63,005 nt of DNA from the NCBI GenBank assembly GCA_022563455.1, contig JADFNI010000001.1:1-63005 (forward strand), given 5' to 3'. Below the pieces are notes generated by a model. That model searched no databases. It saw only the letters and a program-made list of their open reading frames with translations, and had not been told where the DNA came from. This DNA is from Nanobdellota archaeon (lineage in GTDB: Archaea > Nanobdellota > Nanobdellia > Pacearchaeales > GW2011-AR1). Positions 291 to 61,789 of this stretch are shown piece after piece; the stretch's first letter is position 1; the number at the start of each line of letters is the position of its first letter. The position numbers and the translations under genes are program-made.

Positions 291-377
291 ATGGTACAAA
301 AAGTAATTGATGTAATAAATTTTAGATTATGCAATGAGGAAGTCCTTGCGGATCAAAAACTTGGGAGTTTTTGCTGA
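291..377 (+). other. Leader element / mini-ORF copy A (28 codons, MVQKVIDVINFRLCNEEVLADQKLGSFC)
   Basis: The ORF runs from ATG 291 to TGA 375-377, and the stop overlaps the aIF5A ATG at 377 (cTGATGg). The 3' ~55 nt are near-identical to copies at 11900-11986 and 16883-16966. A CAAAAAC(354-360)/GTTTTTG(367-373) stem holds a GGGAG Shine-Dalgarno in or beside the loop. Confidence 0.55.
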
Positions 378-772
378 TGGTACAAAAAGTAATTGATTCA
401 ACTGAAATGCGTGTTGGAACTTATATAATGATAGAAGGATCTGCTTATCAAGTTAAGAAGATGGATGTTTCGAAGACTGGAAAGCATGGACATGCAAAGG
501 TTAGGTATGAGGCTGTATCAGTCATGACTGGAAAGAAAAAAGTTAGTGTTGTTCCTGGACATGATAAATTTGAAGTTCCTATGATTGATAAGAGGACTGC
601 TCAAGTTTTATCGATTTCTAACAATACTGCTAGTTTGATGGACTCCGAATCCTTTGAAAATTTAGATTTACCAATAGCTGAAGAATTCCGAGATTCTCTT
701 AATGAAGGAGATAGTGTAGAATATTGGGACCTTGAAGGTGAAAAATTAATTAAGAAAATATTACAACAATAA
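377..772 (+). CDS. eif5a: Translation initiation factor 5A (aIF5A)
   Basis: Contains the hypusine-loop motif SKTGKHGHAK. The N-terminus MVQKVIDSTEMRVGTYIMIEG is typical of aIF5A. The track ORF 371..772 was trimmed to the ATG at 377. Confidence 0.93.
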   Translation: MVQKVIDSTEMRVGTYIMIEGSAYQVKKMDVSKTGKHGHAKVRYEAVSVMTGKKKVSVVPGHDKFEVPMIDKRTAQVLSISNNTASLMDSESFENLDLPIAEEFRDSLNEGDSVEYWDLEGEKLIKKILQQ

Positions 773-6034: not shown

Positions 6035-6142
6035 ACGCCCACACCCTATAAAAAATTGTGTCTTCAGATTTATATAATTATTGAAGACCTAATTTTTTAG
6101 AATCAAAGGTTCGATTACGGTTGGGTGCTGACGCCCACACCC
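6035..6142. repeat. 12-nt direct repeat (ACGCCCACACCC) of the tRNA-Ser 3' end, copies at 6035-6046 and 6131-6142
   Basis: Exact 12-mer, GC-rich in an AT-rich context, with a 96-nt period. The intervening 84 nt contain a GTCTTCA/TGAAGAC hairpin. Confidence 0.7.
6060..6098 (+). terminator. Hairpin plus T6 tract downstream of the ApbE gene
   Basis: GTCTTCA(6060-6066)-15 nt-TGAAGAC(6082-6088) is followed by TTTTTT (6093-6098). Oligo-T is the archaeal termination signal. Confidence 0.35.
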
Positions 6143-6332: not shown

Positions 6333-6917
6333 ATGAAAAATATTCTAAAAAATAAGGTTGTAGCAATCTTTTTAATAGCTGTTTTGCTTTTAGCTTTTAC
6401 AATATTTACAATGGAAGTTATAAAAACCATATCTCCTAGCAAGAACGTACAAGTAAAATTAGAAACTACTATTGGAGACCTGGTAATTGAGCTTTATTCG
6501 GATTCTCCAATTACTGCTGGAAATTTTGAGAAGCTTGTTAGAGAAGGATATTATGATGGAATTATTTTTCATAGAGTTATTGAAGGATTTATGATTCAGG
6601 GAGGAGATCCTACTGGAACTGGGAATGGTGGGCCTGGATATACAATTGAGGATGAATTTATTGATGGACGAACAAATCTTCGAGGAACATTATCTATGGC
6701 GAACAGTGGGCCTCAGAGTGGCGGAAGTCAATTTTTTATTAATCTACAAGACAATACTTTTTTAGATTTTGATAAAGAGCCTCTTGCTAGCAAACATCCA
6801 GTTTTTGGCGAGGTGGTTGAGGGACTTGATGTTTTGGATAAAATTGGATCGGTTGCGACAGGTACTAATGATAAACCTCTTGAGGAAGTTAAGATAATTA
6901 AGGCTAGTGTTATTTAA
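6333..6917 (+). CDS. Cyclophilin-type peptidyl-prolyl cis-trans isomerase with N-terminal membrane anchor
   Basis: FHRVIEGFMIQGGDP...GGPGYTIEDEF...LSMANSGPQSGGSQFFI is the cyclophilin signature. The start is set at ATG 6333, after a GAGGT SD. Confidence 0.9.
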   Translation: MKNILKNKVVAIFLIAVLLLAFTIFTMEVIKTISPSKNVQVKLETTIGDLVIELYSDSPITAGNFEKLVREGYYDGIIFHRVIEGFMIQGGDPTGTGNGGPGYTIEDEFIDGRTNLRGTLSMANSGPQSGGSQFFINLQDNTFLDFDKEPLASKHPVFGEVVEGLDVLDKIGSVATGTNDKPLEEVKIIKASVI

Positions 6918-6929
6918 TAATAACTTCTA

Positions 6930-7946
6930 TTACTTCCTAAATAACTCATTCAATTTTCCTTCTTTATAGAATTCTATTATAATCAATGCGTAAGCGAAAA
7001 CTAGTGGACCTAGAATAAGCCCAGATAAACCAAAGAAATAAAGTCCTCCTATTGTTCCTACAATGCTTAAGGGGATTGGAAGGTTTGATTGTTTTGCTAA
7101 GAAGTAGGGTCTTGCAACGTTATCAATTGAAGAAACAAAAAAGACACCATAGATTATTAAGAAAATCCCTTGAAATGTGAGACCACTAGCTAAAAGATAA
7201 AATGATACCGGAAGCCAGACTAACCATGAACCTAGTATTGGGATTACAGAAATAATTGCAGCGATTCCAGTTAGTAAAAGTGCGTTTGGAACTCCTAGAA
7301 AGTAAAATGCTACACCGACTGCCAAACCTTGCATTATTCCAATCAAAACTTGACCAAAAACAATTGCATTGGTTATTCCTCTTAATTCTTTTAGAAATCT
7401 TTCTTCAGTACTTTTTGAAAATGGAGACAATTTTGCGGCATACTCTTTTAATTCTTGTGAATCTCGAACTACAAAAAAGAATGTGAATAGGAAGACTGCA
7501 AACTGGAGTATAAATGAAGGTAATTCAAAGAGAACATTTTGTATGCTACTCATTCCTCCAGAGATTACTTGACTAATCATTGTATCGAAGCTAATCGACA
7601 AAGTCCGTGCTAGTTCTGTACTTAAAAAAGTATCTAACACTTCTCCAAAATTATAATTTTGGATTAATCTTAGAGATCTTGCTGCTTGCTTAATTATTGA
7701 AGATGCAAAATAAAATAAGGGGATAGTCACTATAGCAGTAATTCCTGCCATTAATATGGCTGCTGATAGATTTTTTCTTTTTGTTGATTTATACAATTTT
7801 TTATAGATTGGATTAAAAATATATGCGAATAAACCTCCAAAAATTAGTGGGATTATTATTGGCTTTATTATAAAAAATGCGAGAATAAAAATACCTGCTA
7901 TTATGGCCCCAACTAATCCCTTCTTTACTATTGAATCTTCTGCCAT
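6930..7946 (-). CDS. AI-2E family (PerM/UPF0118) transporter
   Basis: A protein with ~8 TM helices whose size and C-terminal GGLYFFGLSGLILGPLV region are typical of the family. Confidence 0.7.
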   Translation of the reverse strand: MAEDSIVKKGLVGAIIAGIFILAFFIIKPIIIPLIFGGLFAYIFNPIYKKLYKSTKRKNLSAAILMAGITAIVTIPLFYFASSIIKQAARSLRLIQNYNFGEVLDTFLSTELARTLSISFDTMISQVISGGMSSIQNVLFELPSFILQFAVFLFTFFFVVRDSQELKEYAAKLSPFSKSTEERFLKELRGITNAIVFGQVLIGIMQGLAVGVAFYFLGVPNALLLTGIAAIISVIPILGSWLVWLPVSFYLLASGLTFQGIFLIIYGVFFVSSIDNVARPYFLAKQSNLPIPLSIVGTIGGLYFFGLSGLILGPLVFAYALIIIEFYKEGKLNELFRK

Positions 7947-9607: not shown

Positions 9608-10570
9608 ATGACAGACGAGAATGGAAGTAGATCAGGAAGTTTGCAATTTTACCCAAGGGTAAGAGCAAAGAAAGTTATTCCTAGTGTAAACTGGAGACCT
9701 GTTAAAAAAACGAGTGTTGGACTTTTAGGATTTGTGGGCTATAAGGTTGGAATGATTTCCGTTTTTGTTAAGGATGATACTGAGGCGAGTCTTACTAAAG
9801 GGAAAAGAATAACAGTACCTGCTACGATCGTTGAATGTCCTTCAATGAAAATTTATTCTGTTAGGTTTTACAAAGGGAGTAAGGTTCTAAAAGATGTTGT
9901 TGTAACTAAGGATAAAGATTTGAAGAAAAAAATTAAGCTTTCTTCTGAAATTAAAAATTTTGAAGAGGCTATTAAAGATTTGAAGGATTTGAATTTTGAG
10001 GATGTTCGAGTTTTACTTTATACAAATGTTAAGATAACTACAGTGGGCAAAAAGAAACCTGATATGATTGAGGTTGGGCTTAGCGGGTCTAATGAGGAGA
10101 AATTGATATTTATTAAAGAAAGAATTGGAAAGGATATTTTGGTTAGTGAAGTTTTTAGTGATGGATTAATTGATGTTCGTGGAGTTACTAAAGGATTTGG
10201 CACTCAAGGACCTGTTAAAAGATTTGGAATTTCGTTGAAATCTCATAAATCTGAAAAGGGGAGACGAAGACCTGGATCTCTTGCCCCTTGGCATCCTGCA
10301 AGGGTTACATTTAGAGCTCCTCAGGCAGGACAAACAGGATATCATAATAGAATTACTTACAATAATGTTATTTTAAAAATTGGAAACATTAATGAGAATG
10401 ATATTAATAAGAAAGGTGGATTTGAACACTATGGGGTTATCAGGGGAGAGTATATTGTTCTTAGGGGTTCAATTCCTGGTCCTTCGAAAAGGGGAATTGT
10501 TATGACTTTGGCAATACGTCCAAGTAAATATTTAGCAAAGAAAAAGTTGGAGGTTCTTGAGATACGATGA
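9608..10570 (+). CDS. rpl3: 50S ribosomal protein L3
   Basis: SRSGSLQFYPRVRAKK matches the archaeal L3 N-terminus (..RRGSL.F.PRKRA). The track ORF 9557 was trimmed to ATG 9608. Confidence 0.92.
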   Translation: MTDENGSRSGSLQFYPRVRAKKVIPSVNWRPVKKTSVGLLGFVGYKVGMISVFVKDDTEASLTKGKRITVPATIVECPSMKIYSVRFYKGSKVLKDVVVTKDKDLKKKIKLSSEIKNFEEAIKDLKDLNFEDVRVLLYTNVKITTVGKKKPDMIEVGLSGSNEEKLIFIKERIGKDILVSEVFSDGLIDVRGVTKGFGTQGPVKRFGISLKSHKSEKGRRRPGSLAPWHPARVTFRAPQAGQTGYHNRITYNNVILKIGNINENDINKKGGFEHYGVIRGEYIVLRGSIPGPSKRGIVMTLAIRPSKYLAKKKLEVLEIR

Positions 10571-10851
10571 ATGACGAAATAGAAAGTTGTGGAAATCAAG
10601 CGTCTTGTGAATATGCGTTTGGCTATCCTCGTCTGTACACTAAACTAGGTCCTGAAGATGCGTTATGCCTCGGGAAGTTAAGTTATGATACTAGAGAGGG
10701 AAGTTATCATGCAACCCTAACACCTATGCCAGGATTTAAGAGTTTCGAGAGGCGAATTCAGTGCGCTCCTGCAGTAATGCTTACATCTCAAAGAAAGGTT
10801 GAAGGGATGCTTGGAAAATTACTTGAAGCAATGGAGGCAACTGGAAAATGA
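10567..10851 (+). CDS. Orphan 94-aa protein inserted between L3 and L4
   Basis: An open frame of 285 nt in an AT-rich genome. There are ATGA overlaps at both ends (L3 stop/ORF start at 10567-10570, ORF stop/L4 start at 10848-10851). It is Lys-poor and has 5 Cys, unlike the neighbouring r-proteins. Confidence 0.55.
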   Translation: MNDEIESCGNQASCEYAFGYPRLYTKLGPEDALCLGKLSYDTREGSYHATLTPMPGFKSFERRIQCAPAVMLTSQRKVEGMLGKLLEAMEATGK

Positions 10852-11637: not shown

Positions 11638-11895
11638 ATGGCAGGAGTGATTATACTTGAAAAAATTAAATCTACAGAAAAGATGGTTAGGCAAATTGAA
11701 ATTGATAATGTTTTGGTTTTTGTTGTGGATCGCGCTGTTAATAAACGAGAGATTAAGGAAGAAGTTGAAAAATTATTTGATGTGAAAGTTGCTAAGGTTC
11801 GGACTCATACATTGAAAAATAAGAAACATGCTTTTGTTAAATTTAAACCGGAATATCCTGCAGTTGATATTGCGACGAAGTTGGGGTTAATGTAA
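11638..11895 (+). CDS. rpl23: 50S ribosomal protein L23
   Basis: An 85-aa protein between L4 and L2, with the ..VFVVDRAVNKREIKEEVEKLFDVKV.KV.T pattern. Confidence 0.9.
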   Translation: MAGVIILEKIKSTEKMVRQIEIDNVLVFVVDRAVNKREIKEEVEKLFDVKVAKVRTHTLKNKKHAFVKFKPEYPAVDIATKLGLM

Positions 11896-11899
11896 AAAT

Positions 11900-11986
11900 A
11901 TGGGTAATGAAAATATTGGAACAATAAGGATAAAATTATGCAATGACAAAGTCCTTGCGGATCAAAAACTTGGAGGTTTTTGCTAA
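11900..11986 (+). other. Leader element / mini-ORF copy B (28 codons, MGNENIGTIRIKLCNDKVLADQKLGGFC)
   Basis: The ORF runs from ATG 11900 to TAA 11984-11986, and the stop overlaps the L2 ATG at 11986 (cTAATGg). A CAAAAAC(11963-11969)/GTTTTTG(11976-11982) stem flanks the GGAGG SD. It fills the whole L23-L2 spacer. Confidence 0.55.
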
Positions 11987-12684
11987 TGGGTAAAAGGATA
12001 ATTCAACAGCGAAGAGGAAAGGGAAGTCATACTTATAAGACTAGAAATAAGGCGTCAATTGTTAGGCCTGGATATACGGCAAATTTAGAAGGAGAATATA
12101 AGGTCATTAAGTTAATTTCTTCTGTTGGGCACTCGGCTCCTATTGCTAAAATGATGAATGCTAAAGGAGATTTATTTTATAATTTTGCAGCTAACTTGCT
12201 TTATGTTGGTCAGACAATTAAAATTGGTGGAAATGCAAGCGGAGATGTCACAAAAATTGGAGACTTAAAGAATGGAACTAGAATATTTAATATTGAAAAT
12301 CATCCAAAAGATGGGGGGAAATTTGTAAGAACTGGGGGAAACTCTGTAATTATAGTTAGTAAAGAAGGAGGACTTGTAAAGGTTGCTATGCCTTCAAAGA
12401 AAGAGAAAAAATTTAATCCAGACTGCAGGGTTACTTTAGGTGTTGCTGCAGGGGATGGAAAATTGGATAAACCAGTTATGAAAGCTGGAACGAAGTTTTA
12501 TATAATGAAATCAAAGTCTAAATTATGGCCTAGAACTTCTGCTGTTGCAATGAATGCGATTGACCATCCTTTTGGTAGTGGACGAGGGAAAAGGATTAAG
12601 AGTAAGATTGCTAAGCGAAATGCTCCCCCTGGTAAGAAAGTTGGTTTGATTAGGCCTAGTAGAACAGGGAGGAAAAAACGATAA
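11986..12684 (+). CDS. rpl2: 50S ribosomal protein L2
   Basis: MGKRIIQQRRGKGSHTYKTR... and NAIDHPFGSGRG are L2 hallmarks. Confidence 0.95.
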   Translation: MGKRIIQQRRGKGSHTYKTRNKASIVRPGYTANLEGEYKVIKLISSVGHSAPIAKMMNAKGDLFYNFAANLLYVGQTIKIGGNASGDVTKIGDLKNGTRIFNIENHPKDGGKFVRTGGNSVIIVSKEGGLVKVAMPSKKEKKFNPDCRVTLGVAAGDGKLDKPVMKAGTKFYIMKSKSKLWPRTSAVAMNAIDHPFGSGRGKRIKSKIAKRNAPPGKKVGLIRPSRTGRKKR

Positions 12685-13643: not shown

Positions 13644-14428
13644 TGGAAGAAAAGAAATTTATAGAAGTTAGGAAGGACGAATATAACATTAAGCAATTTG
13701 TTAAGAGAATGTTTGGTAAGGGAAAGATTTCAAAAGTTAGAATTGAATATACGCCTGTTGGGGAAAAAATAATTATTTCGACTCATAAGCCTGGATGGAT
13801 TATTGGGAAGAGGGGGGAGAAAATTGCAGAATTAACTGAAATATTGAAGAAGAAATTTAAGATGGAAAACCCTCATGTAGATATTGAAGAGATCTTGCAT
13901 CCAGAATTTGATGCTCAATTGGTAGCAGATGACATTGCGCTTACGCTTGAAAGATTTGGAGCTATGAAGTATAAGGCTTCTAGTTATAGAATGCTTGGAA
14001 AGATAAAGAAGGGTGGTGCTCTTGGAGCAGAGTTAAGAGTTTCTGGAAAGCTTCCAAGTGATAGAGCTCGTAGCTGGAGATTTGCATTTGGATATTTAAA
14101 GAAAACTGGAGATGCTGCAAAGGTAGTTGACAGAGCCGAGTCTGTTGCCCAGACTAAGCAAGGAGTTGTTGGAATAAAGGTAGCTATTCTTGCTCCAGGG
14201 GTCATTGTGCACGATCAGATTACTGTAGATGAAGAATTTATGAAACAAGTTATTTCAAATGCTAGTATCGAAGAAGTTGAGGAGACTGTTAAAATAGTTA
14301 AGAAAAAAAGGAAAGTTGCACCTAAAAAAAAGGTATCTAAAAAGGAAGTACTAGTTGAAAAAGAAAAGAAAGTTGAGAAAGTTGAAGAGATTGAGAAAAT
14401 TGAGAAAATAAAGGAGACTAAGAAATAA
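13643..14428 (+). CDS. rps3: 30S ribosomal protein S3 with K/E-rich C-terminal extension
   Basis: A KH-domain region (PGWIIGKRGEKIAELTEILKKKF) plus operon position. Confidence 0.93.
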   Translation: MEEKKFIEVRKDEYNIKQFVKRMFGKGKISKVRIEYTPVGEKIIISTHKPGWIIGKRGEKIAELTEILKKKFKMENPHVDIEEILHPEFDAQLVADDIALTLERFGAMKYKASSYRMLGKIKKGGALGAELRVSGKLPSDRARSWRFAFGYLKKTGDAAKVVDRAESVAQTKQGVVGIKVAILAPGVIVHDQITVDEEFMKQVISNASIEEVEETVKIVKKKRKVAPKKKVSKKEVLVEKEKKVEKVEEIEKIEKIKETKK

Positions 14429-14430
14429 TA

Positions 14431-14637
14431 ATGGCAGATAAAAAAATATTGACAAATAAGGAAATTGAGACAAGAATCATAGATTTAAAAATTGAGCTTC
14501 TAAAACAACCACTTAAAAGGAAAAGCATTAAAAAGGAAATTGCGAGGCTTATTACCATGAGAACTATGAAAACCATGAGGACTATGAATGATTCAACTAA
14601 ACTAATTGAAGAAAAATCTTCAATGGAGGGTAAATAA
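14431..14637 (+). CDS. rpl29: 50S ribosomal protein L29
   Basis: Position after S3, with the LTNKEIETRIIDLKIELLK helix typical of L29. Confidence 0.85.
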   Translation: MADKKILTNKEIETRIIDLKIELLKQPLKRKSIKKEIARLITMRTMKTMRTMNDSTKLIEEKSSMEGK

Positions 14638-14638
14638 A

Positions 14639-14938
14639 GTGGATATTTGTCCGAAATGTGCATTGCCTCTTCCGGCTTGTGTCTGTAGCGAAATTGCTAA
14701 AACGCAACAGAATATAAACGTCAAGACGGAAAAACGAAGATTCGGAAAAGTGTCTACAATGATTGAAGGATTTGATGATGGCATTGATATCAAGGACATC
14801 GCAAAAAAGCTCAAGGCAAAACGAGCTTGCGGTGGAACTGTTAAAAATAAAGTTATTGAACTTCAAGGAAATCATAAGGGTCACATAAAACCAATTTTGG
14901 TAGAACTTGGATTTAGTGAGGATCAGATAAAAGATTAA
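14639..14938 (+). CDS. sui1: Translation initiation factor SUI1/aIF1
   Basis: (M)DICPKCALPLPACVCSEIAKTQQNINVKTEKRRFGKVSTMIEGFD... matches the archaeal aIF1 N-terminus (.ICP.CGLP...C.C). A GTG start at 14639 is preferred to the in-frame ATG at 14606, which lies inside L29. Confidence 0.85.
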   Translation: MDICPKCALPLPACVCSEIAKTQQNINVKTEKRRFGKVSTMIEGFDDGIDIKDIAKKLKAKRACGGTVKNKVIELQGNHKGHIKPILVELGFSEDQIKD

Positions 14939-15724: not shown

Positions 15725-16222
15725 ATGAAATCAAAATTTAATAAAACATGGAATTCCAGTAAGCAACCTCGAAAGCAGGTTAAATTTAGAGCTAATGCGC
15801 CTAACCATATTAGAAGGAAATTTATGGGGGCTAATCTTGATAAGGCGCTTCGGACAAAGTATGGTATTCGAACTATTCAAGTTAGAAAGGGTGATGAGGT
15901 TAAGGTTATGAGGGGAAAATTTAGGGGAAAGCTTGGAAAAGTTGGAGATGTTGATTTAAAAAATACTCGGCTTCAAATTGAGGGGCTTCAAAGAGAAAAG
16001 AAGGGTGGAGAAAAACTAGTGACTTGGTTTAATCCATCTAATGTTAAAATAATCTCTCTTGAAGGAAATGACAGTAGACGGTTTAAACGAGGTAAGGTTA
16101 AGGCTGAATCCCCTAAGAAAGTAGAGGATAAGAAGCTAAAAACTTCTGTTAAGCCATTACCAAAAATGGATAACAAGGAAGTTGAAAAGATTGAAGCTAA
16201 AAGTAAGGAGGCTAAGAAATAA
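15725..16222 (+). CDS. rpl24: 50S ribosomal protein L24 with K/E-rich C-terminal extension
   Basis: Contains the KOW motif VRKGDEVKVMRGKFRGKLGKV. Operon position fits. Confidence 0.9.
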   Translation: MKSKFNKTWNSSKQPRKQVKFRANAPNHIRRKFMGANLDKALRTKYGIRTIQVRKGDEVKVMRGKFRGKLGKVGDVDLKNTRLQIEGLQREKKGGEKLVTWFNPSNVKIISLEGNDSRRFKRGKVKAESPKKVEDKKLKTSVKPLPKMDNKEVEKIEAKSKEAKK

Positions 16223-16223
16223 A

Positions 16224-16880
16224 ATGCACATAAAGAAAAGTTTAATGCCTAGAACGTGGCCAGTACCTAGAAAGGCTCAAGGAAAGAAGTATATTTCTGT
16301 TCCTAGCCATGCGACTAGAAAAGGGATTAGTTTATTGTTTATACTTAGAGATATTTTGAAGATTGCGAATACTAAGAAAGAAGTTAGGTTTATGACTCTA
16401 AACAGCCTTGTTAAGGTCAATAATAAGATTAGGTGTGATGAGAATTTTCCTGTTCAAGTTTTTGATACAATCAATCTAGAAAAGGCTGGAAAGAATTATA
16501 GACTTGAGATAGTTAACCGTAAATTTAGCTTGAAGGAAGTGAGTGATAAGGAATCTATGGAGAAAATTGTAAAGATTACTGGTAAAAAACTTTTAACTGG
16601 AAACAAGATTCAGATGAATTTAGATGATGGGCATAATATCCTTGTGAAAGAGAAGTTTTCTGTTGGAGATTCTGCTTTGATTGATAACATTAATCAGAAA
16701 GTTTTGAAGATTCTTCCATTAAGTGAAGGAGCAAACATTGAAGTTGTCTTGGGAAAACATGCAGGAGAAAAAGGTAAACTTGTTGCTATTGAAAATCTTG
16801 TTCGTGGAAGAAATTATAAAATTAAACTGGAGGGAGGAATGGTTAGTCTTCCATTTAAGACTATCCTAGTGATTAAATAA
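16224..16880 (+). CDS. rps4e: 30S ribosomal protein S4e
   Basis: MHIKKSLMPRTWPVPRKAQGKKYIS matches the S4e N-terminus (.HLKR...P..WP..RK). The track ORF was trimmed to ATG 16224. Confidence 0.9.
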   Translation: MHIKKSLMPRTWPVPRKAQGKKYISVPSHATRKGISLLFILRDILKIANTKKEVRFMTLNSLVKVNNKIRCDENFPVQVFDTINLEKAGKNYRLEIVNRKFSLKEVSDKESMEKIVKITGKKLLTGNKIQMNLDDGHNILVKEKFSVGDSALIDNINQKVLKILPLSEGANIEVVLGKHAGEKGKLVAIENLVRGRNYKIKLEGGMVSLPFKTILVIK

Positions 16881-16882
16881 CA

Positions 16883-16966
16883 ATGGGTAAAAATATTGAA
16901 ACAATAAAGATTGAATTATACAATGGCAAAGCCCTTGTGGATCAAAAATCTGGAGGTTTTTGCTAA
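16883..16966 (+). other. Leader element / mini-ORF copy C (27 codons, MGKNIETIKIELYNGKALVDQKSGGFC)
   Basis: The ORF runs from ATG 16883 to TAA 16964-16966, and the stop overlaps the L5 ATG at 16966. The CAAAAAT(16943-16949)/GTTTTTG(16956-16962) stem is kept via a G-U pair. It differs from copy B by one in-frame 3-nt indel. Confidence 0.55.
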
Positions 16967-17496
16967 TGGCAGAGAATATTATGAAAACTATAAAGCTTGA
17001 GAAAGTTATTTTGAATATTGGTGGGGTTGGCGATAAGCTTGATAAAGGAGTAATTTTACTTGAAACTGTTAGTGGAAGAAAAGCTGTACGAGTTAAAGCT
17101 ACAAAAAGAATTCCTACATGGAGTATTCGACCTGGACTTGAAGTTGGAACAAAGGTAACTCTTCGAGGAAGCGCAGCACTGGAGATTATTAAAAAACTTC
17201 TTCCAGCAATTGACAATACTTTGAAGGAAAAACAAGTTCAGAATAATTTCTTTTCTTTTGGAATACATGAATATATTGAAATTCCTGGGATTGAATACAT
17301 TAGAGAGGTTGGAATTATGGGGTTCGAAGTTACTGTTGTGTTTTCTAGAGCTGGAAAATCTGTTGAAAAGAAAAAAGTTAAAAGGGGAAAACCTAAGAGA
17401 ATTGGTGTCTCTAAAGAAGATATTATAGAATATTTAGTAACTAAATTTAATACTCAGATTCTTCGAAAGAAGAAGACTCACGAGTTGGACGAATAA
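16966..17496 (+). CDS. rpl5: 50S ribosomal protein L5
   Basis: MAENIMKTIKLEKVILNIGGVG matches the archaeal L5 N-terminus. Operon position fits. Confidence 0.93.
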   Translation: MAENIMKTIKLEKVILNIGGVGDKLDKGVILLETVSGRKAVRVKATKRIPTWSIRPGLEVGTKVTLRGSAALEIIKKLLPAIDNTLKEKQVQNNFFSFGIHEYIEIPGIEYIREVGIMGFEVTVVFSRAGKSVEKKKVKRGKPKRIGVSKEDIIEYLVTKFNTQILRKKKTHELDE

Positions 17497-22256: not shown

Positions 22257-23624
22257 ATGGCTCTTAGAGATTTATTAAAGAACTTGCCTGAAGTAAGAGG
22301 TCCTACTGAAAAGAAAGTTAGTTTTAATGTTAAATTAAAATGGACATTGATTATTCTTGTTGCTTATTTTGTCTTGTCTAATATTCCTCTTTTTGGCATT
22401 AGTGAAGGCTCACTTTCTCGTTTTGAATATTTGGCAATTTTACTTGGAACTTCATTTGGCTCAATTATTACGCTTGGGATTGGTCCTATTGTTATGTCGT
22501 CTATTATCTTGCAACTTTTAAAAGGTGCTCAAATTTTGAATGTTGATACCAATACTTTGGAAGGAAAACGATTTTTTCAAGGGTTGCAGAAACTTTTGGC
22601 ATTTGCATTTGTTGTTTTTGAATCGATTGTTTATGTTCTTATGAATGGGATTGCCGCACTAGAAGGGTTTGCCGGACTTGTTATTTTTCAACTTATTCTA
22701 GGAGGGATCTTGATTTTATTAATGGATGAAGTTATTCAGAAATGGGGCTTTGGTAGTGGAGTATCTCTATTCATTGCTGCAGGAATTGGATGGAGACTTT
22801 TCGCCCAGTTATTTCAGTTTATTGGACCTGAAGGAACTCTTGCCCCAATTGGGAAAGTTCTTGCATTTGTAGCCTCAGTTATAGTTGCTGATGGACGAGG
22901 GGCTATGGCCGCATTGTTTCCAATAATTGTTACGGCCCTTTTGTTTTTGGCTGTTGTTTTTGCACAGAGTTTGAAGGTAGAAATTCCACTAGCGTTTGAT
23001 CGAGTCCGAGGACATTCAGTTAAATGGCCATTGCAATTCTTTTATGCAGGAGTTATTCCAGTTATTTTAGTTTCTGCACTTACGGCCAACTTGCAGTTGT
23101 TTGCGTCTCTTATTCAAAATTGGGCTGGAGGGGCAACGTTTCTTGGAGGATTTAGCAGTGGTGGACTGGCCATATCCGGACTAGCATTTTGGATTGGTTC
23201 AACTCCAATATTGGATGCTGCAATTAACGGAACATTTAGGTTGATTTATATTCCTCAATCATTTTTTCATATAATATTTTATGTATTCTTCTCAGTTTTA
23301 TTTTCTTTCTTTTGGGTGAATACGTCAGGAATGGACGCTAGAAGTCAAGCAAATAAGATTGTTAATAGTGGTATGAGTATGCCTGGATTTAGAAAGGATG
23401 AAAGAGTTTTGGAATCTATTTTGAAGAGATATGTTGGACCTTTGACTGTCATGGGTGGTGCTGCTATTGGACTGCTCGCGTCAGTTGCAGATTTACTTGG
23501 AGCACTTGTGGGTGGAACTGCAATTCTTTTAGCGATTATGATATTGTATCAGTTATATCAAAACATTGCACAACAGCATGCAGTTGATATGAATCCTGCA
23601 CTTAAGGGATTTTTCGGTGCATAA
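22257..23624 (+). CDS. secY: Preprotein translocase subunit SecY
   Basis: A 10-TM protein at the canonical position after L15. The N-terminus has the ..LPEV..P..KVSF..KL.WT pattern. Confidence 0.95.
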   Translation: MALRDLLKNLPEVRGPTEKKVSFNVKLKWTLIILVAYFVLSNIPLFGISEGSLSRFEYLAILLGTSFGSIITLGIGPIVMSSIILQLLKGAQILNVDTNTLEGKRFFQGLQKLLAFAFVVFESIVYVLMNGIAALEGFAGLVIFQLILGGILILLMDEVIQKWGFGSGVSLFIAAGIGWRLFAQLFQFIGPEGTLAPIGKVLAFVASVIVADGRGAMAALFPIIVTALLFLAVVFAQSLKVEIPLAFDRVRGHSVKWPLQFFYAGVIPVILVSALTANLQLFASLIQNWAGGATFLGGFSSGGLAISGLAFWIGSTPILDAAINGTFRLIYIPQSFFHIIFYVFFSVLFSFFWVNTSGMDARSQANKIVNSGMSMPGFRKDERVLESILKRYVGPLTVMGGAAIGLLASVADLLGALVGGTAILLAIMILYQLYQNIAQQHAVDMNPALKGFFGA

Positions 23625-23722
23625 AATCCCATGAATAAAGTCATAAAGACTTTCTAAAGGGATTTTTCGGTGCATAAAATCCCATGAATAAAGTCATAAA
23701 GACTTTCTAAAGGGATTCTTTG
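23604..23722. repeat. 53-nt tandem repeat, ~2.2 copies, starting inside the last 7 codons of secY
   Basis: AAGGGATTTTTCGGTGCATAAAATCCCATGAATAAAGTCATAAAGACTTTCTA occurs exactly at 23604 and 23657. A diverged partial third copy starts at 23710. Each unit contains the hairpins GGGATTTT/AAAATCCC and AAAGTC/GACTTT. Confidence 0.85.
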
Positions 23723-24209: not shown

Positions 24210-25064
24210 ATGATTGAACTATTTATAAAGGCAAAAAGGGCTGAGAGACATCCTTGGGAACTGTTTTTTATTGGTGCTTTTTGGGCCTCGGTTGCTCTTC
24301 TTCTTGTAACTTTTTTCTTTGGAAATGATTCTATTTTGAAAGAGGGTAGCGGACTTTTAGTTGTAATATTCACTGTGATTTCTTGCCTCCCTTTTATGTA
24401 TTATATTATAAAACTTGAAGAAGGAAAGGACGTCGAGATTGATGACTCTGGGAGGCTCATTAAAGAACACTCTAAGGCAATTCATGCTTTGATATGGATG
24501 TTTTTAGGATTCGTAGTCGCATTTTCTTTTTGGTATATGGTTTTACCTGAACAAGCTGCACAAAATTTCAATTTTCAAATAAAAACTTTTTGTGCAATTA
24601 ACAGTCCATCAAATTACAACTATTGTTTGGATCAGCATGGAATTCCAATAACGACTGGGGCAGTTACTGGAACCAATGCAGTGTTCGCAATTTTTGCAAA
24701 TAATATATCTGTCCTTATTTTTACTATTGTATTTTCTTTGGTTTTTGGCGCGGGTGCTATTTTCATTTTAGTTTGGAATGCGTCAGTTATTGCTGCAGCT
24801 ATTGGAATTTTTGCTAAAGGAGAACTTGTGGATCTTCCACTTGGGCTCCTTAGATATATGTTTCACGGGATACCGGAGATTGGGGCCTATTTTATAGGAG
24901 CTCTTGCTGGAGGAATAATATCTGTAGCAGTTATTAGAAAGGATCTTCGAGGAGAAGGAGCTTGGAAGATACTGCAAGATTCACTCACATTAATGATCAT
25001 CGCTATTGTTGTTTTGATGGTCGCAGCTTTGATGGAAGTTTATCTTACTCCCTTGATGTTTTAG
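24210..25064 (+). CDS. SpoIIM/DUF95-family integral membrane protein
   Basis: The IFANNISVLIF..., VWNASVIAAAIG and HGIPEIGAYFIGALAG motifs are typical of DUF95. Confidence 0.65.
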   Translation: MIELFIKAKRAERHPWELFFIGAFWASVALLLVTFFFGNDSILKEGSGLLVVIFTVISCLPFMYYIIKLEEGKDVEIDDSGRLIKEHSKAIHALIWMFLGFVVAFSFWYMVLPEQAAQNFNFQIKTFCAINSPSNYNYCLDQHGIPITTGAVTGTNAVFAIFANNISVLIFTIVFSLVFGAGAIFILVWNASVIAAAIGIFAKGELVDLPLGLLRYMFHGIPEIGAYFIGALAGGIISVAVIRKDLRGEGAWKILQDSLTLMIIAIVVLMVAALMEVYLTPLMF

Positions 25065-25158
25065 TTAGTTTCCTGATTCGATCAAAGATCTCATGTAAAA
25101 AAAATCTTGAGATTTTTTCTGATGGAAGTTTATCTTACTCCTTTGATGTTTTAGTTAG
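25030..25158. repeat. 39-nt direct repeat of the DUF95 gene 3' end (25030-25068 and 25120-25158, 1 mismatch) flanking a 51-nt insert
   Basis: TGATGGAAGTTTATCTTACTCC(C/T)TTGATGTTTTAGTTAG occurs twice with a 90-nt period. The insert carries an AAAAAATC-TTGA-GATTTTTT hairpin followed by CTGATGG. Confidence 0.85.
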
Positions 25159-25188
25159 ATTTTTAAGTGAGAAAAATTAGAATAGATT

Positions 25189-61511: not shown

Positions 61512-61654
61512 TTTCGGACTCGAAGGTTCGATTCCATTATTTGCTTAGATGCGCGGACTGCTCAAGATCATCTCTTTGTTTATGTTTATTTTATCAAAGA
61601 GTTAATCTTTCGGACTCGAAGGTTCGATTCCATTATTTGCTTAGATGCGCGGAC
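61512..61654. repeat. 47-nt direct repeat (61512-61558 and 61608-61654) covering the tRNA-Gly 3' end plus 38 nt of trailer
   Basis: TTTCGGACTCGAAGGTTCGATTCCATTATTTGCTTAGATGCGCGGAC occurs twice exactly with a 96-nt period. The 49-nt spacer holds the CTCTTTG(61572-61578)/CAAAGAG(61595-61601) hairpin. Confidence 0.85.
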
Positions 61655-61736
61655 GGGGACTCGAACCCCGGTCAATTGGTTTCTTCAAACTTAAAATATT
61701 TGGAAGCCAATTATTCTGCCACTAAACTATCCACGC
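61646..61736 (-). tRNA. tRNA-Gly (anticodon UCC) with a 20-nt intron after position 37 (about 61681-61700)
   Basis: Reverse complement: GCGTGGATAGTTTAGTGGCAGAATAATTGGCTTCCA[AATATTTTAAGTTTGAAGAA]ACCAATTGACCGGGGTTCGAGTCCCCGTCCGCGCA. The acceptor stem is GCGTGGA/TCCGCGC. The intron pairs with the anticodon region (CAAA/TTTG, CTT/AAG) in a BHB-like fashion. Confidence 0.8.
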
Positions 61737-61789
61737 ATTAAAGGTAATATCCTTAAGAGGGTTTTAAAGTTTATCGTTGTATATTGCAA

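Follow-up and report, generated by a model that had tools for sequence, protein, structure and literature searches.

A repeated mini-cistron at gene starts in DPANN archaea and its possible role in relaying translational coupling

Why should three unlinked genes of one archaeal genome, those for aIF5A and for ribosomal proteins L2 and L5, each begin on the stop codon of much the same short open reading frame (ORF)? The window analysed here, a stretch of 63,005 nucleotides from a Nanobdellota archaeon (contig JADFNI010000001.1 of assembly GCA_022563455.1, positions 1 to 63,005 of the forward strand), has 33% G+C and is part of a 272,662-bp scaffold of a metagenome-assembled genome (MAG; ENA ERZ23499104). 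The first-pass annotation of the window, made from its letters, had read the three mini-ORFs as a "common translational operator or coupling device" shared by translation genes. Comparison with related loci indicates that they belong to a family of 66-93-nt elements, duplicatively spreading in a subset of Woese- and Pacearchaeota-type DPANN archaea, each lying exactly at a gene start. We think it rather probable that this duplicative junction element works as, or is tolerated because it is, a relay of translational coupling.

Mini-cistrons at gene starts

Copy A (291-377, forward strand) holds a 28-codon mini-ORF before aIF5A, its TGA (375-377) overlapping the aIF5A ATG at 377-379. A TATA-like box, TTTTATAAA, stands at 259-267, ~25 nt before the copy begins, so copy A would be the leaderless 5' end of its transcript; the same copy is found in an independent Logan assembly (L030). 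Copy B (11900-11986, forward) fills the L23-L2 junction with a 28-codon mini-ORF, MGNENIGTIRIKLCNDKVLADQKLGGFC*, whose ATG lies 4 nt past the L23 stop (11893-11895) and whose TAA (11984-11986) shares one A with the L2 ATG (11986-11988). Copy C (16883-16966, forward) fills the S4e-L5 junction with 27 codons, starting 2 nt past the S4e stop (16878-16880) and ending in a TAA (16964-16966) that overlaps the L5 ATG (16966-16968). The first-pass annotation had these coordinates and the three peptides exactly, and was right that each stop shares one base with the following ATG and that copies B (87 nt) and C (84 nt) differ by an in-frame 3 nt; the trio spans 84-87 nt. A repeat search returned copies A, B and C as the top direct-repeat family of the window, and nhmmer recovered them with E-values of 3e-26 to 1.5e-24 and no other match better than E = 1 in the window. 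The annotation's impression that the window holds no further full copy is also correct. Searches of the window and of the 10 kb on its left side bring up no fourth, and all that the covariance models contribute there is a degenerate relative at 25069-25127.

Relatives were found by scanning genome and metagenome collections with the pattern GATCAAAAANNTGGNNGTTTTTGC and then running covariance-model searches on the retrieved loci; the latter, a check that the first-pass annotation had proposed, recovered more copies in other genomes. Below, codes with three digits (L006-L042) denote retrieved relative loci, and L1, L2, L5 and the like denote ribosomal proteins. L035 and L041 come from the same MAG or genome as L006, L039 is from a strain whose aIF5A is 98% identical to that of the window, and L020 is the window scaffold again with copy B masked by N. 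Filled junctions comprise L1-P0 (L006/L041 and the diverged relative L010/L014), L24-S4e (L009/L032; 5827-5894 in L009), Rrp4-Rrp41 of the exosome (L011), the start of a T2SSE-family ATPase (L007), aIF5A-L40e (L010 2552-2619, subtype 1), and S3-L29 and S19-ORF, both in L035 and both of a 93-nt subtype. Elements also lie upstream of aIF5A in L010 (subtype 2, which has no Shine-Dalgarno (SD) motif) and, as a different variant, in L039. L010 carries four copies within 13.4 kb.

What these copies have in common is their anatomy. All 12 distinct, fully readable copies that precede real genes combine an SD motif within a hairpin with an overlap of stop and start, and in 11 of the 12 an ATG-started frame runs the whole length. 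The mini-ORFs measure 66, 66, 66, 66, 66, 72, 84, 87, 87, 90, 90 and 90 nt, all stop-free multiples of 3, and the frame is kept although the 5' parts differ by several independent indels. GGAGG sits 9 nt before the downstream ATG; among window genes, an SD-like motif occurs at this position in only 17 of 69. In 13 of 14 copies the base after the ATG is G, compared with 51% of window genes (p = 0.001). T(A/G)ATG invariably marks the right boundary, the junction reading TAATG or TGATG (ATGGTAG in the SD-less subtype). Within operons the mini-ORF ATG falls 0-4 nt past the upstream stop; at promoters it takes the site of the former leaderless ATG. Across 285 kb, on both strands, every strong match is in the sense orientation and abuts a start codon. 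By these comparisons position, strand and frame are conserved features of the family; the peptide sequence is not conserved, and the anatomy is.

Two loci bear further fragments. At L007 2895-2926, just upstream of the L007 copy, lies a stretch resembling the 3' end of the element (GGTGGTTTTTGCTA, then TAAATAAA, then ATG), and a 22-nt insertion at L010 13016-13037 likewise resembles that end (GGTGGTAAAAGTTTTTAG). Both suggest that the ATG junction of the element itself has taken up nested or tandem insertions.

Two covarying hairpins

Hairpin 2 of copy B (11963-11982, forward) reads CAAAAAC-TTGGAG-GTTTTTG and presents the SD motif GGAGG (11972-11976) in its loop and first stem pair; its counterparts are at 354-373 in copy A and 16943-16962 in copy C. 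This is the 7-bp CAAAAAC/GTTTTTG stem that the first-pass annotation had drawn, and copy C does keep its pairing there through a U-G pair, as claimed. A second hairpin upstream, hairpin 1, had been overlooked, as had a 21-nt duplication at copy A (described below). Hairpin 1 was obtained from RNAalifold unguided. In copy B it is GCAATGAC-AAA-GTCCTTGC (11940-11958, forward), with 7 pairs and a U.C mismatch, and it recurs at 331-349 in copy A and at 16920-16938 in copy C. Over ten distinct copies RNAalifold gives hairpin 1 as GCAAUGAC-AAA-GUCCUUGC and hairpin 2 as an A-rich arm, a GGAG loop and a U-rich arm.

The U.C mismatch of hairpin 1 is invariant in all copies of alignment A4. Its pairs change between G-C and A-U, C-G and U-G, and A-U, G-C and G-U, and the loop is free (AAA, GAA, GGA, TTC or AAT). 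The stem of hairpin 2 is built from at least four different sequences across copies, the variants being AAAAAATC/GATTTTTT (L039 and the degenerate relative), TAAAAC/GTTTTA (L035) and AATTAAAAAC/GTTTTGAATT (L010 subtype 2). The 93-nt subtype replaces hairpin 1 by an unrelated stem, GUUUUUCC/GGAAAAAC, which covaries with GUUUUCCC/GGGAAAAC; the arms are also written GTTTTTCC/GGAAAAAC versus GTTTTCCC/GGGAAAAC. Compensatory stem changes, which the first-pass annotation had suggested scoring, occur at 6 of the 15 pairs over both hairpins, and 96.7% of cells are paired. Copy C by itself has two compensatory pairs in hairpin 1 in addition to its U-G pair in hairpin 2. The alignment reaches a covariation score of 0.320, compared with 0.137 for shuffled alignments; none of 500 shuffles attains 0.320, in a comparison that is uncorrected for relatedness, and slid controls give at most 0.104.

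Rfam offered no family at the gathering threshold, nor in a permissive scan of copy B; matches were sub-threshold only, to hsp17 (20.1 bits against a threshold of 45) and ROSE_3 (10.8 against 43). Two RNA candidates were rejected. The 21-nt repeat at copy A prompted a search for a bulge-helix-bulge intron, but folds with flanks contain no such motif, and the boundaries are direct repeats and not complementary. For a C/D-box sRNA or K-turn, CUGAUGG is present only in copy A, the degenerate relative and L039, the others having CUAAUGG, so the boxes are not conserved. No canonical slippery site for a programmed frameshift fusing the peptide to the gene was seen by eye.

Filled and empty junctions, and the competing explanations

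The L23-L2 junction is filled in the window genome only. It is empty in L022, L024, L025/26, L027/28, L009/L032 and L035-38 (~six lineages), reading TAATGG in L009, TAAATGG in L022 (85% L2 identity), and TAG, 6 nt and ATG in L024 (83%). L23 and L2 are called as adjacent or overlapping in L025-L028 and L035-L038, and neither covariance model matches there. S4e-L5 is likewise filled in the window only and empty in four lineages (L025/26, L027/28, L009/L032 and L035/L038); in L035, 14 nt without an element separate the two genes. Conversely, the window itself has empty sites that are filled elsewhere: TAAAATG at L24-S4e (16220-16227, forward), a junction that among the loci compared carries the element only in L009, and TAATGG at aIF5A-L40e (770-775, forward), where the aIF5A stop overlaps the L40e start and which is filled in L010. 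The site upstream of aIF5A is empty in L040 and L041/42, where a TATA-like box is followed ~25 nt later by the aIF5A ATG in a leaderless arrangement; the window, L039 and L010 have the element interposed after that leaderless ATG position. Most empty junctions have stop and start overlapping or 0-6 nt apart. Presence of the element is therefore patchy within single junctions. Such a pattern is at odds with a conserved operator of these genes and agrees with repeated lineage-specific gain, as far as sequence comparison can tell.

One junction of intermediate appearance is the 38-nt aIF5A-L40e spacer of the L006 genome (L041 4917-4954, AGATTTAAAAGGAGATTTTCTTGATTATAATT). It contains AAAA-GGAG-ATTTT, which may be the hairpin-2 remnant of a decayed element.

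Between ATTATGC and ATG the core is identical at 54 of 54 positions among window copy B, L009 and L006, genomes whose L2 genes share only 74% DNA identity, and the window's own copies A-C differ from one another at 6-8 core positions. This combination fits a spreading element. At the orthologous filled L1-P0 site, 63 of 66 element positions are identical, compared with 83-84% for the flanking genes. Contigs of two independent assemblies end at the element, L021 starting at the L2 ATG and L039 inside the element, as assemblies do at repeats. The first-pass annotation had allowed for recent neutral duplication. Absence from the orthologous L2 and L5 loci agrees with that, but the accompanying absence of copies elsewhere does not hold, since other genomes carry them; as members of a family dispersed across several genomes, the copies are not simply a neutral one-off duplication. 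Phage or plasmid origin found no backing, as blastn returned nothing meaningful and a viral-contig scan with the hairpin-2 pattern was empty. One viral-contig match to the hairpin-1 pattern, L019, was set aside as doubtful; ~0.7 chance matches are expected (a rough figure, with ~100 Gb assumed), and it lies inside an opposite-strand ORF.

The operator half of the original proposal fares poorly against these data, and the coupling half is upheld by anatomy, frame and covariation. An operator in the strict sense would be a cis-regulatory RNA whose hairpins 1 and 2 bind a trans-acting protein or RNA and thereby co-regulate downstream translation, an arrangement compatible with a coupling relay. 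Hairpin covariation, the invariant U.C mismatch and a core more conserved than the flanking coding sequence would all suit such a role, and most of the downstream genes serve translation or RNA processing (aIF5A, L2, L5, P0, S4e, L29, L40e and Rrp41). However, orthologous loci have no element even in the closest L23-L2 relatives (83-85% L2 identity), and the strain with 98%-identical aIF5A has a different variant at its aIF5A site. Nor is placement confined to ribosomal-protein operons: the element also precedes Rrp41, which acts in exosome RNA processing, the T2SSE ATPase and an ORF without known function. The apparent enrichment for translation genes is not established, because the fetched loci are biased to ribosomal-protein regions. 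Rfam knows no such RNA. With L23-L2 and S4e-L5 empty in all relatives examined, we regard one shared operator as unlikely.

Equally unlikely, in our estimate, is a selfish repeat of the REP/PATE type acting purely at the DNA level. A tyrosine transposase (IS200/IS605 TnpA or RAYT) would recognise its hairpins in single-stranded DNA, its frame and SD motif would serve only as a survival filter, and hairpins in the RNA would play no part. Such a repeat would account for the patchy distribution, the near-identical copies across genomes, the hairpins near the ends without terminal inverted repeats, the contig breaks at L021 and L039, and one dead copy away from a gene start. Against it, six alignment cells hold G-U pairs, which are possible on the sense strand only and become A.C mismatches on the other, so that RNA is favoured over DNA as the molecule that folds. 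Orientation is always that of the downstream gene. Flanking direct repeats are present, long ones at copy A and at 25030/25120, whereas IS200/IS605 elements make none, and no transposase was seen at the loci examined, although none was searched for.

A transcription signal appears still less probable. It would be an internal archaeal promoter, with the AT-rich 5' part (ATATATAAAATATT) as its TATA box, or an oligo-T attenuator formed by the T5 or T6 run in the 3' arm of hairpin 2; archaeal RNA polymerase does terminate at oligo-T tracts. However, such tracts are common in a genome of 33% G+C, the AT-rich 5' part is the least conserved region of the element, and neither signal explains why the frame is conserved, why stop and start overlap, or why the ATG falls 0-4 nt past the preceding stop. 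Finally, a functional small protein, a paralogous peptide of 21-30 residues, can be all but discounted; the first-pass annotation had listed evidence for coding. The frame is open in 11 of the 12 copies counted above, and LCN(D/E/G)x(V/A)LA and a C-terminal FC recur. However, of the variable core columns in alignment A2, 3 are at first, 7 at second and 5 at third codon positions, with no synonymous excess; four of copy C's amino-acid changes coincide exactly with its two compensatory stem pairs; the N-terminus either varies or is taken over from the gene downstream; and the 93-nt subtype (subtype 3) keeps both peptide ends around a wholly unrelated middle.

A relay across the inserted gap

Termination-reinitiation coupling in Haloferax volcanii and Escherichia coli needs overlapping or near-adjacent stop and start codons (PMC10666635; PMC6728339; reviewed in PMC12548453), and an intergenic distance of ~20 nt almost abolishes it (PMC10666635; PMC6728339). 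Because so short a gap nearly abolishes coupling, an untranslated insert of 66-93 nt at a TAATG junction should uncouple the downstream cistron. We infer that the mini-ORF is translated and that ribosomes reinitiate after it. The gene's former initiation signal, whether reinitiation or a leaderless 5'-terminal AUG, would now start a mini-cistron of 21-30 codons; ribosomes would translate through hairpins 1 and 2, terminate at the UAA or UGA whose last base opens the gene's AUG, and reinitiate at that AUG, aided by the GGAGG displayed in the loop of hairpin 2. Coupling would in this way be relayed across a gap of 66-93 nt that would otherwise be untranslated. The element may profit its host through the strong SD motif that it adds, or may be a selfish insertion that is tolerated, and hairpin 1 may do more, for instance in protein binding, processing or RNA stability.

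The closest functional likeness is to synthetic bicistronic design cassettes and leader mini-cistrons, in which a short ORF likewise holds the downstream SD motif and its stop overlaps the ATG (TAATG). There, ribosomes reading the short ORF should unfold local structure and then pass to the following start (10.1101/2023.02.09.527918; PMC5995908). The element differs in being natural, repeated, apparently spreading and located at many unrelated junctions, in its extra conserved upstream hairpin, and in receiving its own ribosomes either through reinitiation after the cistron before it or at a leaderless 5' AUG; its function, moreover, is predicted from sequence. Autoregulatory leaders of ribosomal proteins (archaeal L1; bacterial L10, S8 and L20) share a structured RNA beside a ribosomal-protein cistron start, but the element is not operon-specific, is not conserved at orthologous loci, has no Rfam match and has no detected rRNA mimicry. 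RNA thermometers (ROSE, fourU, hsp17) share a weak A-U-rich hairpin around the SD motif, which in the element is mostly in the loop and unsequestered, the U-run pairing with the A-run and not with the SD.

Among dispersed repeats, the bacterial REP/BIME, ERIC, Correia/NEMIS, RUP and BOX families are small, non-autonomous and hairpin-forming, patchily dispersed and tolerated in transcription units, and Rickettsia palindromic elements insert in frame and keep reading frames open. By contrast with these intergenic repeats, the element is archaeal, always sense, abuts a start codon, has no terminal inverted repeats, and constitutes a mini-cistron of its own, neither an untranslated palindrome nor a protein insert read in frame. 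It shares dispersed copies and presence/absence differences with miniature inverted-repeat transposable elements, but not their terminal inverted repeats or fixed-length target duplication. To our knowledge the parts (dispersed hairpin repeats, coupled leader cistrons and SD-bearing hairpins) are known and their combination at start codons is not; full-text searches found no published description of a DPANN element of this kind.

The flanks of the element bear on how it is copied. Direct repeats that start at the gene ATG consist of the ATG only in L006, L009 and L011, of 8 nt (ATGGGTAA) at copy B, and of 21 nt at copy A. The last is an exact repeat, ATGGTACAAAAAGTAATTGAT, at 291-311 and 377-397 (forward), whose right arm is the true 5' end of aIF5A; this arm is taken as the original because the N-terminus MV(Q/A/S)KVI(D/E) is conserved in relatives. 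The longest flanks belong to the degenerate member, at 25072-25119 on the forward strand (covariance match 25069-25127), past the stop of a SpoIIM-like gene (24210-25064). A 42-nt direct repeat, 95% identical (25030-25071 and 25120-25161, forward), brackets it; both arms start with TGATGG, the left at an internal TGATGG of the SpoIIM-like gene, and the right encodes only ten codons, a duplicate of that gene's C-terminus. This member scores 27.6 to 35.4 bits in cmsearch, and its hairpin 2, AAAAAATC-TTGA-GATTTTTT followed by CTGATGG, nearly equals that of the L039 copy at aIF5A, which identifies it as a genuine member of the family. It does not precede a real gene; the mini-ORF is lost and the SD motif has decayed to TTGAG.

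Copying might proceed, tentatively and with low confidence, by copy-choice or template switching, in which re-annealing at T(A/G)ATGG microhomology would form the right junction. The left junction of the new copy would fall at a variable point, giving direct repeats of variable length that run from ATGG. Selection would then keep only in-frame products wherever the copy precedes a needed gene.

Unrelated fillers with similar openings occur in L035, where 55-60-nt segments of unrelated sequence at 14194-14254 (S14-S8) and 14633-14688 (S8-L6) each have an SD motif near the end. The opening 9-10 nt of both repeat the start of the gene downstream (ATGTCAAAAG versus ATGTCACAAG; ATGAATAAA versus ATGAATAAA). 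One "start-duplicating" insertion process may produce more than one family.

Several points weigh against a mobile relay. The evidence for the element is computational throughout, and the sample is small and uneven: ~14 distinct copies from ~7 related genomes, mostly from ribosomal-protein-rich regions. Part of the copy set was retrieved by a pattern in which hairpin 2 was fixed, the covarying hairpin-2 variants being covariance-model matches that the pattern did not constrain. Folding energies of single sequences are no better than shuffled (z from -0.73 to +0.38), so the case for the hairpins rests on covariation alone, and there relatedness enters as noted. L010 subtype 2 lacks an SD motif and has its stop 4 nt past the ATG, and at L010 13035 a copy persists although the 22-nt insertion has abolished its ATG-started frame. 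With regard to mobility, the length of the flanking repeats is not fixed but ranges from 3 to 42 nt, an inverted-repeat scan of the three copies gives internal hairpins only and none at the termini, and the loci examined revealed neither a transposase nor any other mobilising partner, although no search aimed at transposases was made. We infer mobility solely from the distribution of the copies.

Considered together, these observations leave a substantial chance that the element represents a new class of start-codon-associated mobile element. The fullest version of the proposal is more speculative: a "translational relay cassette" that targets start codons, copies itself by template switching at T(A/G)ATGG, survives in essential coupled operons and at leaderless 5' ends by passing ribosomes on, and moves between DPANN lineages. 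We hold this to be a possibility, though not the likelier outcome. Movement between lineages, if true, would explain the identical core despite 74% L2 DNA identity.

Other insertions and repeats lie in the same operons and elsewhere in the window. Unrelated mini-ORFs of 28, 19 and 29 codons precede L11 (L029 ~6870-6955, minus strand, on the window scaffold to the left of the window) and lie between L2 and S19 (L024 6313-6372) and between S5 and L30 (L038 12145-12234, with GGGGTTTCGG repeats). Their stops overlap or fall just past the next start, and the bridging of junctions by mini-cistrons seems general in these operons. Longer ORFs are wedged between ribosomal-protein genes as well: 94 amino acids between L3 and L4 (window 10567-10851), 131 between L4 and L23 (L009 1136-1531), 43 between L2 and S19 and 165 between S19 and L22 (L035 8461-8592 and 9080-9577), and 116 between S17 and L14 (L038 5967-6317, absent in L035). 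Neither of the two that were scanned (window 10567-10851 and L035 9080-9577) has a Pfam match, and precomputed tables list none for the rest. In this lineage, ribosomal-protein operons are unusually permissive of insertions. At L037 6579-6827 a GIY-YIG ORF is called where L036, from the same population, has a different short ORF (6699-6896); this comparison is of ORF calls and not of DNA, and the difference may reflect gene calling or a real, homing-endonuclease-like presence/absence.

Two tandem 53-nt units at window 23601-23706, 98% identical (CTTAAGGGATTTTTCGGTGCATAAAATCCCATGAATAAAGTCATAAAGACTTT), overlap the stop of SecY (22257-23624) and extend just beyond it; each holds a GGGATTTT...AAAATCCC hairpin, and the sequence is unrelated to the junction element. 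Within a tRNA cluster, an exact 47-nt direct repeat (61512-61558 and 61608-61654) with a T-arm-like GGTTCGATTCC inside adjoins and partly overlaps a 94-nt tRNA-Gly (61644-61737, minus strand), and a similar fragment lies beside tRNA-Ser at 6078-6116. This repeat may have arisen by duplication of part of a tRNA, or may mark a former integration site. The 67-nt repeat, 85% identical, at the 3' ends of P0 and P1 (4394-4460 and 4747-4813) is ordinary, being the expected acidic C-terminal tail of the stalk proteins.

For practical purposes, the element breaks assemblies at ribosomal-protein operons and leaves unannotated "intergenic gaps" of 80-100 nt in gene calls. If the relay reading is true, it would be a natural counterpart of engineered bicistronic cassettes, and the first dispersed element to gain its "passport" into essential operons by keeping translational coupling intact. 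Junctions that are empty in one genome and filled in a relative would then serve as natural before-and-after experiments on archaeal termination-reinitiation, and aIF5A would have turned in a single step from a leaderless gene into one that is SD-led and fed by an upstream ORF. The small genomes of DPANN archaea are usually thought to be repeat-poor; the element would add a family of mobile elements to them.

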